From assembly GCA_029856125.1 (NCBI GenBank), contig JAHQWJ010000080.1, positions 1-64,000 of the forward strand: 64,000 nucleotides of DNA. The letters are read 5' to 3'. This stretch comes from Promethearchaeia archaeon (GTDB lineage: Archaea; Asgardarchaeota; Lokiarchaeia; Sigyniarchaeales; SOKP01). Below, one piece after another: positions 51,200-53,310 of the stretch. The notes under the pieces were generated by a model. It was not told the origin of the DNA. It saw only the letters and a list, made by a program, of their open reading frames with translations, and searched no databases. Position numbers and translations under genes: made by a program. Numbering within the stretch: position 1 is the first letter of the stretch; the number at the start of each line of letters is the position of its first letter.

Positions 51200-51607
51200 T
51201 TGGAGTTTGGTACAGACCTTGGAATTGGGCCCGATGAAATCGAAAAAATAAGTCCTCAAATTACTTTTATCACTTCAAACGCGGATATTGAAGCTATCGC
51301 TCTTGTGAGCTTGGAAGGTTATCAGATCGCTTTTTCAGCCCTTCCACAATATCAAGTTGACGGAGATCAGTTTTGTGGGCTAGCAAGTGCATTATTAATG
51401 ACTGGAAGTTCAACAATTAAAACACTATTTCAAGAAGATTTAAGTGAAATAATTGTGAGAGCTGAGAATGGTTATGTAATTGTAAGCAACGCAGGGCGTC
51501 TAGTAATCGTGTGTGCAGGAACGCTCATTGATACATTGATGAAAACTGTTAAAGTAATGAGGGTTGCTGCAAAGAATTTAGCTATGATTTTTGAACAAAA
51601 ACAATAA
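51200..51607 (+). CDS. Roadblock/LC7 (MglB-like) domain protein
   Basis: IEAIALVSLEG, LASALL, EIIVRAENGYVIV; TTG start 7 nt after GGTG. Confidence 0.9.
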   Translation: MEFGTDLGIGPDEIEKISPQITFITSNADIEAIALVSLEGYQIAFSALPQYQVDGDQFCGLASALLMTGSSTIKTLFQEDLSEIIVRAENGYVIVSNAGRLVIVCAGTLIDTLMKTVKVMRVAAKNLAMIFEQKQ

Positions 51608-51686
51608 AATCTGATTTTTTATTGAAGAATAAGTTTATAATGCTTCAAAAATACTTCTATAAATATACATTTTATGGTTAAAATCG

Positions 51687-51758
51687 ATGTTTACTAAAAT
51701 AAACCTCCTTAAATGTTGGCATGGACTATGGCGTTTTAAAACGCTCTTTCAACGGTAA
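51687..51758 (+). CDS. Putative Trp leader peptide MFTKINLLKCWHGLWRFKTLFQR
   Basis: 23-codon uORF with two TGG codons, ending 151 nt upstream of trpB2; TATA-like boxes at 51634-51641 and 51658-51665. Confidence 0.55.
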   Translation: MFTKINLLKCWHGLWRFKTLFQR

Positions 51759-51909
51759 AACCATAAATTTTGCTCTGACTACTTTTTAACATCATTTTTT
51801 AATAACAAGCATTGCACCTGCAATCAAGCATTATTATTATTGATTTCCAATTTTAAGATGAGACATCATTTAAATTTGATGATGAAAAAATAGTAAAAAG
51901 GAAATAAGT

Positions 51910-53310
51910 ATGACAGATTTTTATAATACAAGAATTTTACTTGAACCAAATGAAATACCAAAGGAGTGGGTTAATATCGTACCAGATTTACCTGCTCCCA
52001 TGACGCCCTTAATAAATCCCATGGATGGGAAACCTGCACCTCCTGAGCTTGCATTTGCGATATTTCCAAAGGAATGTGTACTTCAGGAAGTCTCTCAAGA
52101 ACCTACAATTCAAATTCCTAAGGAATTAAGGGAGCTTTATGTTAGATCTTATCGGCCAACACCGCTTCATAGAGCATATGGTTTAGAGAAAGAACTTGGA
52201 ATTGAAGGTGAAGATATCAAAATTTTCTATAAAAATGAATCGGTTTCTCCCACTGGATCTCACAAACCAAACACAGCTCTAGCTCAAGCTTACTATTCTA
52301 AAAGAGACGGGGTCGATGAATTGATAACCGAAACAGGAGCGGGTCAATGGGGTTCTGCTTTATCTTACGGCTGTAATTTGTTTGACATTAAGTGTACTGT
52401 TTACATGGTGAGAGCTAGCTTTATCCAAAAACCAGGAAGAAAAATACTGATGAGAGCTTTTAATGGTCAAGTTCATGCAAGCCCTTCAAAATTGACAGAC
52501 TCTGGAAAATATTATTATGAACAAGACCCAGATCATCCAGGAAGTTTAGGAATTGCTATATCTGAAGCGGTTGAACATAGTATGAGAAGTGAGAAGTCGA
52601 GATATTCTTTAGGTAGCGTTGTGAATTTCGTTCTTTTACATCAAACTATCATAGGACAAGAGGTTAAAGCACAACTACAAAAAGTTAACGCTAAACCTGA
52701 TGTTCTGGTTGGATGTATGGGAGGAGGGTCTAATTTAGGAGGTCTAATGATTCCTTTCGCGAAAGATAAATTAGATGGAAAATATCCTGATTTAGAGATC
52801 GTGGGAGTAGAACCCAGAGCTTGCCCAAGTGTCAACAAAGGAGAATATAGATGGGACTACGGAGATTCTGCTAAAAAAGCTCCAATTTTAAAAATGTATA
52901 CATTAGGCCATAATTTTATTCCAAGCCCAATTCATTCAGGAGGATTACGATATCATGGAATGGCTCCAATAATTTCGATATTGGCGAAAAAGAAAATAAT
53001 GTCCTCAGTCATGCATCACCAAACTGAAGTTATTGGATCAGGTTTACTTTTTGCGAAAACAGAAGGGATTCTGCCTGCGCCTGAAGCCGCCCACGCAATA
53101 AAAGAAGCGATTGATCAAGCGTTAAGAGCAAAAGAAAACTCCGAAAAGAAAACAATCGTTTTCTGCTTAAGTGGACACGGATTTTTTGATTTATTAGCAT
53201 ATAAGGAATATATGGTTGGTAATTTAGTAGATTACGAACTACCAAATGTTGAGATTCAAAAGGCTTTAAGCGCGCCAGATATGCCTAGTATTGACGAAAC
53301 TCGGTTTTAA
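51910..53310 (+). CDS. trpB2: Tryptophan synthase beta chain, stand-alone TrpB2 type
   Basis: RPTPLHRA, GSHKPNTA (PLP Lys), TETGAGQWGSAL, GSLGIAISEA, GGGSN, GGLRYHG, LSGHG. Confidence 0.96.
   Translation: MTDFYNTRILLEPNEIPKEWVNIVPDLPAPMTPLINPMDGKPAPPELAFAIFPKECVLQEVSQEPTIQIPKELRELYVRSYRPTPLHRAYGLEKELGIEGEDIKIFYKNESVSPTGSHKPNTALAQAYYSKRDGVDELITETGAGQWGSALSYGCNLFDIKCTVYMVRASFIQKPGRKILMRAFNGQVHASPSKLTDSGKYYYEQDPDHPGSLGIAISEAVEHSMRSEKSRYSLGSVVNFVLLHQTIIGQEVKAQLQKVNAKPDVLVGCMGGGSNLGGLMIPFAKDKLDGKYPDLEIVGVEPRACPSVNKGEYRWDYGDSAKKAPILKMYTLGHNFIPSPIHSGGLRYHGMAPIISILAKKKIMSSVMHHQTEVIGSGLLFAKTEGILPAPEAAHAIKEAIDQALRAKENSEKKTIVFCLSGHGFFDLLAYKEYMVGNLVDYELPNVEIQKALSAPDMPSIDETRF

Follow-up and report, generated by a model that had tools for sequence, protein, structure and literature searches.

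Why is the only tryptophan synthase-like gene of an Asgard archaeon preceded by a 302-bp spacer that contains a short reading frame with two tryptophan (Trp) codons? We address this question for a window of 64,000 nt (the whole stretch of DNA that was analysed) from contig JAHQWJ010000080.1 of a Promethearchaeia archaeon, by comparison with genomes of the same order, Sigyniarchaeales. The gene is trpB2, which encodes a stand-alone TrpB-like pyridoxal phosphate enzyme, and we propose that the spacer is its structured 5' leader of about 245-246 nt, transcribed from a TATA box at 51634-51640, in which an upstream open reading frame (uORF) would report on the supply of Trp. Conservation in relatives makes it highly probable that the leader senses Trp; the full mechanism given below, in which ribosome stalling would govern premature termination, is one that we hold with moderate confidence. 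The elements from which the argument starts are these:

51608-51909, forward strand: spacer of 302 bp, flanked by a Roadblock/LC7 gene (5') and trpB2 (3')
51687-51758, forward strand: leader uORF MFTKINLLKCWHGLWRFKTLFQR, 23 codons plus stop (ATG at 51687, TAA at 51756-51758)
51910-53310, forward strand: trpB2, the proposed regulated gene, 466 aa, NF009057/TIGR01415

A Trp-codon reading frame upstream of trpB2

The Trp codons of the uORF are its codons 11 (W11, 51717-51719) and 15 (W15, 51729-51731); the frame, these codons, the hairpin beside them, the T-tracts and the other stems all lie where an earlier note on this DNA had placed them. On this genome alone the uORF is unremarkable, because 66 out of 2322 intergenic strand-regions (2.8%), called crudely over the whole 3.69-Mb assembly, hold an ORF of at most 40 codons with two Trp codons within five codons; the chance of 1-2% per ORF that the note had estimated was about right but ignored this multiplicity. 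Its significance derives from conservation in relatives. The other Trp-leader candidates of this genome that lie before a gene are those of aEF-2, Kae1, a flavodiiron protein and an unknown protein, and were set aside as chance. A WSWSW frame that turned up twice was rejected too; it falls within a molybdopterin oxidoreductase gene, at contig ends that overlap. A simple scan of this genome for leaders of other amino acids gave none that was convincing. The ends of contigs C148 and C150 share a stretch of a molybdopterin-oxidoreductase-like gene, an assembly overlap at which they could be joined.

TrpB2 is present in 129 of the 154 genomes of the order, and 88 trpB2 upstream regions were examined. 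Nearly all of the 37 loci from the same genus combine the order Roadblock gene, spacer, trpB2 with a Trp-rich uORF at about -230 to -150; this order is kept in the genus wherever it could be checked, and the spacer is alignable along its full length. A typical uORF in relatives reads MATxxxxxWRWQWPWR*, that of the sister clade is MVTENFDFCWQWPWRS, in species of the genus that are further removed it is MATDKNSFWRWQWPWRF or MLTEKMTFWRWQWQWRS, and MATVNNLAWRWQWAWRWR is an example from other genera of the family. The uORF of the window is homologous to those ending in CWQWPWRS* and WRWQWPWRF*, and an in-frame 3-nt indel separates the uORFs of its clade from those of the sister clade. Relatives typically carry three to five Trp codons within the final 10 codons, and 52 of the 69 distinct uORF tails have three to six in the last 13. 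The Trp frame occurs in 11 of the 13 sampled genera of the family; three further families of the order (f2, f3 and f4), one of which (f2) includes two single-contig genomes of 4.4 and 6.0 Mb whose uORFs end in ...AWHSL* and ...AWPWH*, have a two-Trp version, ...W(A/P)W(H/Q/R)*, placed further upstream, and two Trp codons are the norm in f2. Outside the order, comparable frames were found in seven or eight of 20 sampled Asgard families. Between families the flanking sequence has diverged beyond alignment, yet the Trp frame persists. The search for conserved Trp uORFs ahead of trpB2 and trp genes across the Asgard archaea, which the earlier note had put forward as a check on its idea, returned a recurrent feature.

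The frame can also be recognised without presupposing an ORF. Among 66 loci with TGGNNNTGG at -460 to -100, an ATG precedes any stop in the Trp frame at 49 loci, compared with 3 and 7 for the other two frames, and a stop follows within four codons of the last Trp codon at 59 loci, compared with 0 and 4. Two relatives from other families have a full operon trpD-trpC(F)-trpB-trpA-trpE (confirmed with Pfam), and each of these operons is preceded by a Trp-rich uORF of its own, ...GHFWFWWAWRL* (209 nt) in one and ...NNSWTIWAWRL* (132 nt before trpD) in the other; both genomes also carry a Trp uORF before trpB2. This association with Trp synthesis, rather than with one gene neighbourhood, is the strongest argument from the comparison for what would be a Trp-sensing role. 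One genome of the same genus has two trpB2 paralogues on contig C50, separated by 15 kb and in opposite orientation, each with a Trp-rich leader ORF, MATGNYYFWQWPWSWL at L038 and MATEKNTFWRWQWPWRF at L039. The trpB2 of another relative (locus L007, genome G016; 88% identity) has a single in-frame TGA within an otherwise full-length gene; sequencing error, recoding or decay to a pseudogene could each explain it.

All six genomes of the clade to which the window belongs have a derived uORF with two Trp codons, the middle one having been lost. A change in the loop of hairpin H2 (described below) removed the original stop, so that the uORF was extended by seven codons and ends exactly at the foot of helix H1; in most lineages the stop lies in the H2 loop. 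In the window's genome a TGG persists out of frame, and it is this that forms the overlapping frame MLAWTMAF to which the earlier note had drawn attention; the frame is present in the sequence but unique to this genome. The window's clade has in this sense a weakened, derived version of the element, with two Trp codons against three to five. It is kept nonetheless: the TATA box, H1, H2, both UGG codons, the start codon and the open frame are present in 6/6 genomes of the clade. The leader is also under constraint: its identity (92-94% over 246 nt within the clade, 58-69% against the sister clade) exceeds that at 4-fold synonymous sites of trpB2 (80-83% and 41-50%, respectively).

The base 3' of UGG is C in 197 of 234 cases (uORF tails L001-L090), in genomes of about 30-33% G+C, and this bias gives rise to UGGC repeats and to a peptide in which W alternates with R, Q, P or H. 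Codon context, pairing and nascent-chain effects are ideas that come to mind, and no explanation accounts for the bias. Pairing of UGGC with the acceptor end of tRNA-Trp was considered; ARAGORN gave no tRNA-Trp in the assembly for comparison, finding only 17 tRNAs, or about 29 with introns allowed. Intron-rich or split tRNA genes are likely in this genome.

What the frame precedes is consistent with such a role. TrpB2 matches both NF009057 (635.7 bits, cut-off 366) and TIGR01415 (591.8 bits, cut-off 518.85) over its full length and above the curated cut-offs, and trpB2 is the only TrpB-like gene in the assembly, which is 99% complete. TrpA, indole-3-glycerol-phosphate synthase (TrpC) and the chorismate-binding family (TrpE) had no match in this assembly, in searches that were each positive in 14 of 14 control genomes; trpB2 therefore stands alone. 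From what is generally known of TrpB2 enzymes, that of this genome most plausibly makes Trp from salvaged indole. As trpB2 is the sole Trp-pathway gene found in the genome, raising its expression upon Trp starvation is physiologically sensible.

Covarying helices around the uORF

The uORF is enclosed by, and ends within, RNA structure that is conserved together with it. The elements of this domain in the window are:

51628-51640, forward strand: predicted archaeal promoter P1, with an AATAAG like the transcription factor B recognition element (51628-51633) and the TATA box TTTATAA (51634-51640)
51671-51679, forward strand: H1 5' arm TTTATGGTT, covarying with 51759-51767 and present in the minimum-free-energy and centroid folds
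51731-51744, forward strand: H2 hairpin GCGTT(TT)/(AA)AACGC, palindrome GCGTTTTAAAACGC, whose 5' arm begins at the last base of the W15 codon; covariation
51759-51767, forward strand: H1 3' arm AACCATAAA, adjoining the uORF stop and followed directly by TTTT (51768-51771)
51768-51800, forward strand: U-rich stretch with T4 at 51768-51771, T5 at 51783-51787 and T6 at 51795-51800

RNAalifold, run on 65 leaders of the family, recovered two helices, H1 and H2. H1 joins a segment about 10 nt 5' of the uORF start to a segment just 3' of the uORF (consensus ATGGTTTA with TAAACCAT) and so brackets the uORF; it contains the pairing of CCATA (51761-51765) with TTTATGGTT that the earlier note had suggested. 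In H2 the last Trp-Arg codons pair with a segment 3' of the stop, GGCGTT with AACGCC, and the hairpin that the note had seen at W15 is the local form of this helix. The alternative pairing of CCATA with the TATGG at W15, also part of that proposal, is not conserved, the sister clade reading CCTTGG there.

Covariation was assessed in an alignment of 61 sequences (A1), with slid partners and 500 shuffles as controls. For H1 and H2 together, 85.7% of cells are paired, compared with 30-46% in the slid controls, and 45 cells carry double changes, compared with 17 +/- 3.3 in shuffles (0/500). Within H1, pair 9/118 is GC in 32 sequences, AU in 16 and GU in 6, and pair 6/121 is AU in 34 and UA in 9; within H2 (columns 79-84 with 94-99; 89.9% of cells paired), pair 82/96 is GC in 48, CG in 4 and AU in 3, and pair 81/97 is CG in 51 and UA in 5. 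Several genera have H2 in a shifted register with other sequence (TTGGC/GCCAA, GGTC/GACC, GCAT/ATGC, GTGTT/AACAC), which on these alignments is further covariation missed by a fixed-column count. In family f2 the stop codon adjoins the 5' arm of a 12-bp hairpin (GCTCTAAG.../...CTTAGAGC), and U4-U5 follows after 6-8 nt. The structural case rests on covariation because single-sequence stability is weak: windows at the uORF stop have a median z of -0.79, compared with -0.05.

Features on either side of the helices are conserved as well. Of the 65 leaders, 63 retain a TATA-like heptamer (TTTATAA, TTTTTAA or TTTTTAT), which in most of them lies 38-46 nt 5' of the H1 arm (40 nt here), and from the usual archaeal spacing transcription is predicted to start at about 51662-51668, near 51664. 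The conserved TATA box and the covarying helices along the spacer suggest that the spacer is co-transcribed with trpB2. A GGT inside the H1 5' arm lies at -13 to -11 from the uORF ATG and may be a weak ribosome-binding site of the uORF, because its spacing is that of the trpB2 Shine-Dalgarno sequences of relatives. Downstream, the region between H1 and a second conserved block, module C, is 49% T and 29% A, with a T run of at least 5 in 51/65 leaders and an A run of at least 5 in 9/65; the T-tracts that the earlier note had listed are thus a strand-specific, conserved feature, and the U-rich stretch 51768-51800 is a candidate for archaeal oligo-U termination or pause signals.

Further elements follow between the U-rich stretch and trpB2, and the 5' neighbour precedes the spacer:

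51200-51607, forward strand: Roadblock/LC7 gene, PF03259 match
51811-51824, forward strand: predicted H3 hairpin ATTGCA-CC-TGCAAT, stem kept in the genus with G-U variants
51828-51860, forward strand: module C, GCATTA...ATTGATTTCCAAT...AAGATG, a conserved outer helix with an inner hairpin
51864-51884, forward strand: predicted H5 hairpin CATCAT-loop-ATGATG (CATCAT 51864-51869, ATGATG 51879-51884), just 5' of the ribosome-binding site
51899-51904, forward strand: Shine-Dalgarno-like AGGAAA of trpB2, complementary to the 16S 3' end ...CCUCCU

Module C is the most conserved block of the leader across the family (GCATTA-N-ATTGAnTTCCAAT-N-TAATGA, in the same place in L002-L090). In alignment A2, 83.4% of its cells are paired, compared with 26-45% in slid controls, and changes on both sides occur at 8 of 10 pairs (0/500 shuffles), so that outer and inner helices both covary. 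It is unique in the genome, its sole look-alike lying inside a coding region, and it persists in species that have lost the uORF; for this reason we consider it a separate element, and it may act as an operator, as a site for a protein or as an RNA motif. A second promoter within it (a TATA-like A/T-rich segment after CCAAT) is less likely, since that segment forms part of a covarying helix and the predicted start would fall within H5. Module C has two UGA motifs, one on each strand, and these might point to a fold of the K-turn type.

The loop of H3 varies within the genus (CC, TC, TT, TA), and unrelated hairpins occupy its position in other genera. H5 has a compensatory variant, CATCT/AGATG, in one relative (L010), and reads CACATC/GATGTG, CACAT/ATGTG or ACATT/AATGT, with loops of 1-9 nt, in other genera. 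AAAGGAA is invariant among the 11 closest leaders, and the trpB2 ribosome-binding sites of relatives (GGTGA, GGTAA) and of this genome (AGGAAA) match the 16S rRNA 3' end ...GGATCACCTCCT (...CCUCCU), which lies on the same contig (genome contig C84, near 104148, outside the window). The G+C content around the spacer is 25-39%, making it A+T-rich, and no Rfam family matched the spacer. The Roadblock/LC7 protein is 86-97% identical within the genus, and its gene is a constant 5' neighbour of the trpB2 leader in the genomes of the genus that were examined; it is fixed in other genera of the family too, and a functional link to trpB2 is not obvious.

Proposed ribosome stalling and termination, and the alternatives

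The comparison gives good support to a leader ORF that would be translated and from whose Trp codons a ribosome could reach the 5' arm of a conserved hairpin. The uORF, its frame and Trp codons, H1, H2, the TATA box and the U-tract bias come from comparison; translation, stalling and the output step are what we infer in the account that follows. The uORF (51687-51758) would be translated, and sensing would fall to its Trp codons. At low levels of charged tRNA-Trp, a ribosome would wait at the UGG at 51717 or at 51729, where it would cover the 5' arm of H2 (51731-51744) and sit within H1 (51671-51679 with 51759-51767), keeping H2 open and probably hindering H1, so that the compact H1/H2 fold would not form. 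When Trp is plentiful, the ribosome would reach the stop and depart, the H1/H2 domain would fold, and the folded domain together with the U-tracts (51768-51771, 51783-51787, 51795-51800) would halt or abort most transcripts 5' of trpB2. Behind a stalled ribosome, RNA polymerase would read through, and expression of the only Trp-forming enzyme would rise on Trp starvation. Premature termination or pausing at the U-tracts is the output we favour because of the strand bias of these tracts, the hairpin-plus-U layout of f2 and the lack of any predicted effect at the trpB2 start. The region 51550-51960 holds H2 followed by U3-U5, H1 followed by UUUU, and T5 and T6 further on, a layout that could suit archaeal oligo-U termination.

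The earlier note had proposed Trp-sensing control through ribosome stalling, coupled either to termination at U-tracts or to occlusion of the trpB2 start site. The comparative data strongly support the sensing part; start-site occlusion found no support. When the Trp codons were masked and the 65 leaders folded, the accessibility of the trpB2 ribosome-binding site was 0.50 compared with 0.51, and module C was unchanged; a long-range pairing of CATTGGA (after H2) with TCCAAT (module C) has a predicted probability near zero and no covariation. Both results bear on the possibility that the same uORF sensor acts through stalling on trpB2 translation initiation, mRNA stability or processing instead of termination. 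The long structured leader, with module C and H5 as additional covarying elements just 5' of the ribosome-binding site, would fit such an output, as would the capacity of archaeal termination to proceed without hairpins and a negative scan for bacterial-type terminators; module C, however, is kept in species without the uORF and hence acts independently, and the strand-specific U-tracts would be left without explanation. We consider this version of the output improbable, though worth bearing in mind. It is less probable still that the uORF of the window is a decaying relic that no longer regulates, with trpB2 constitutive or controlled separately at module C. The reduction from three to five Trp codons to two, the stop shifted by seven codons, the interrupted U-run after H2 (TCTTTC here, TTTTTC in the other five genomes of the clade) and the complete loss of the uORF in other genera would all be expected of a relic, whereas the excess of leader identity over synonymous sites and the retention of the TATA box, both helices, both UGG codons, the start codon and the open frame in all six genomes of the clade would not; two Trp codons, moreover, suffice in the trp leader of E. 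coli and are the norm in f2.

Two further explanations leave the ribosome out of the sensing. The UGGC motif, with its 6-nt spacing, might be bound by a TRAP-like RNA- or DNA-binding regulator or be part of a riboswitch-like RNA; the preference for C after UGG in a genome of about 33% G+C points to a nucleotide constraint beyond coding alone, and the entire leader is structured. Start and stop signals specific to one frame, indels that preserve it, N-terminal codons that vary while the frame remains open, and a motif count and register relative to H2 that differ among lineages are what one expects of a frame that is read, and with no TRAP gene and no Rfam match we judge such a regulator very unlikely. 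Least credible to us is that the uORF encodes a functional micropeptide that merely lies beside trpB2. The conserved alternation of W with R, Q or P (WRWQWPWR) resembles cationic Trp-rich peptides of the indolicidin or (RW)n kind, but the window's version lacks the pattern (CWHGLWRFKTLFQR), there is no evident export signal, and neither length nor N-terminus of the peptide is conserved; the uORF, in addition, is always found in leaders of Trp-synthesis genes, including an unrelated trp operon, and a covarying hairpin encloses its stop codon.

Several points weigh against a Trp-sensing leader that acts through termination. The compared genomes are related, and all counts given here overstate independence. 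Two genera (g15 and g16) and part of a third (g21) lack the Trp frame while keeping trpB2, with a spacer that is shorter or holds only a remnant, and the uORF of the window's clade has just two Trp codons, three codons apart. The fold of the single leader sequence is no better than that of shuffles (z = -0.68). Conserved structure in the uORF domain is limited to H1 and H2; no conserved antiterminator or mutually exclusive fold was found there, and 51550-51960 contains no bacterial-type terminator (a G+C-rich hairpin directly followed by a U-run), in a bacterial promoter and terminator scan that is itself uninformative for an archaeon. To our knowledge archaeal polymerases do not require hairpins for termination, and why a folded H1/H2 domain should promote it is unexplained; here the first U-tract of at least 5 begins 16 nt past H1. 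A terminating ribosome, too, covers H2 and in this clade also H1, and the two states differ in dwell time, not in kind. Both the sensing and the output proposals, finally, come from sequence comparison. Weighing these points against the conserved frame and its covarying fold, we regard as evenly balanced the broader proposition that Loki-type Asgard archaea use a ribosome-mediated leader-peptide sensor of amino acids, in which a Trp uORF in a covarying fold would couple translation speed to premature oligo-U termination.

The loci without a uORF (L052-L056, L059-L062, L047, L049 and L050) keep the synteny of the Roadblock gene and trpB2 and amount to natural 'deletion mutants'; L050 retains a remnant of the H2 3' arm and CATTGG.

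Relation to known regulatory systems

For bacteria, attenuation through the ribosome is textbook material. The literature that was searched, on leader peptides of archaea in general and of the Asgard lineages, on attenuation and on how TrpB2 is regulated, gave only bacterial work or general statements, and no published archaeal case. If the proposal is true, archaea exploit coupled transcription and translation for metabolite sensing, and this coupling has a direct regulatory use in the closest prokaryotic relatives of eukaryotes. The system would have an architecture of its own, with a helix that brackets the uORF, UGGC repeats and a second conserved RNA module; it would offer a compact natural setting for the effect of a stalled ribosome on an archaeal RNA polymerase related to Pol II and on U-tract termination, and a cis-regulatory handle for the few cultured Asgard strains. 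As this organism lacks de novo synthesis of Trp, its controlled stand-alone TrpB2 suggests that indole from the surroundings or from partners is salvaged in a regulated way. What the present analysis contributes to the idea of a Trp-sensing leader is the derived two-Trp form and the constraint on it in the window's clade, the finding that some genera have lost the uORF, the recognition of module C as an independent element, and a folding test that gave no support to start-site occlusion.

Among the known systems, the enterobacterial trp operon leader (trpL, RF00513) and the bacterial his, leu, thr and phe attenuators share with this element a short ORF in the 5' leader of amino-acid synthesis genes. 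The 23-codon uORF, whose translation is predicted, has its Trp codons at positions 11 and 15, and such a frame lies 5' of trpB2 at the large majority of the 88 loci and 5' of the trp operon in two relatives. As in trpL, the codons cluster just before the stop (...KGWWRTS* in E. coli, ...WQWPWRS* in the sister clade), the control codons lie beside or within the arm of an RNA hairpin, and U-rich sequence follows 3'. The differences are equally plain: the host is an archaeon with another transcription machinery; there is no conserved 1:2/2:3/3:4 scheme or antiterminator, and no U-run stands immediately 3' of a G+C-rich hairpin; codons that start with C are interspersed between the Trp codons, which thus do not stand in tandem; a long-range helix brackets the entire uORF; and control would act on a lone trpB2, the other genes of the pathway being absent from the genome. 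The Trp_leader model RF00513 had no match in the spacer (E up to 10) and none in the whole genome, and sequence similarity is absent as well. We conclude that the element resembles the bacterial trp, his and leu attenuators in its mode of action but is not a member of that family, because it has no model match, no terminator/antiterminator pair and a different transcription machinery.

Attenuators of the Trp and Cys type have been predicted in actinobacteria by comparative genomics (PMC1262725), and polycysteine leaderless short ORFs have been described in mycobacteria (bioRxiv 10.1101/834739). These are likewise conserved short ORFs rich in one amino acid, 5' of the matching synthesis genes, with a ribosome-dependent mechanism that does not always involve a classic terminator; they are bacterial, with another transcription machinery, and the mycobacterial ORFs are leaderless, whereas a leader of about 20 nt and a weak GGU are predicted here. 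Other Trp-responsive systems act without a translated sensor of this kind. The leader RNA of the Bacillus TRAP system and the T-box riboswitch also sense Trp or tRNA-Trp for trp genes, whereas sensing here would run through the translating ribosome; the genome has no TRAP gene (PF02081), and the spacer has neither (G/U)AG repeats nor a T-box match. A TnaC-type arrest peptide is not indicated, as the 69 uORF tails show no conserved Asp or terminal Pro at a fixed spacing and the gene downstream serves biosynthesis. Among archaea, control of Trp genes by a protein is exemplified by TrpY of Methanothermobacter, which reportedly represses trpEGCFBAD and trpB2; gene class (trpB2) and signal (Trp) are the same, but TrpY is a DNA-binding repressor at the promoter, and the element proposed here would be a translated frame in a transcribed, covarying RNA.

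Eukaryotic regulatory uORFs make an interesting comparison, given that no known relatives of eukaryotes are closer than the Asgard archaea. The fungal arginine attenuator peptide and the uORFs of GCN4 are eukaryotic uORFs that report amino-acid status, and as proposed here it is translation of the uORF that carries this report and sets the expression of the downstream ORF. The eukaryotic examples work through scanning ribosomes or through peptide arrest by the free amino acid; for the trpB2 leader, sensing of starvation at the level of the codon, in a setting of prokaryotic type and probably coupled to transcription, is likelier.

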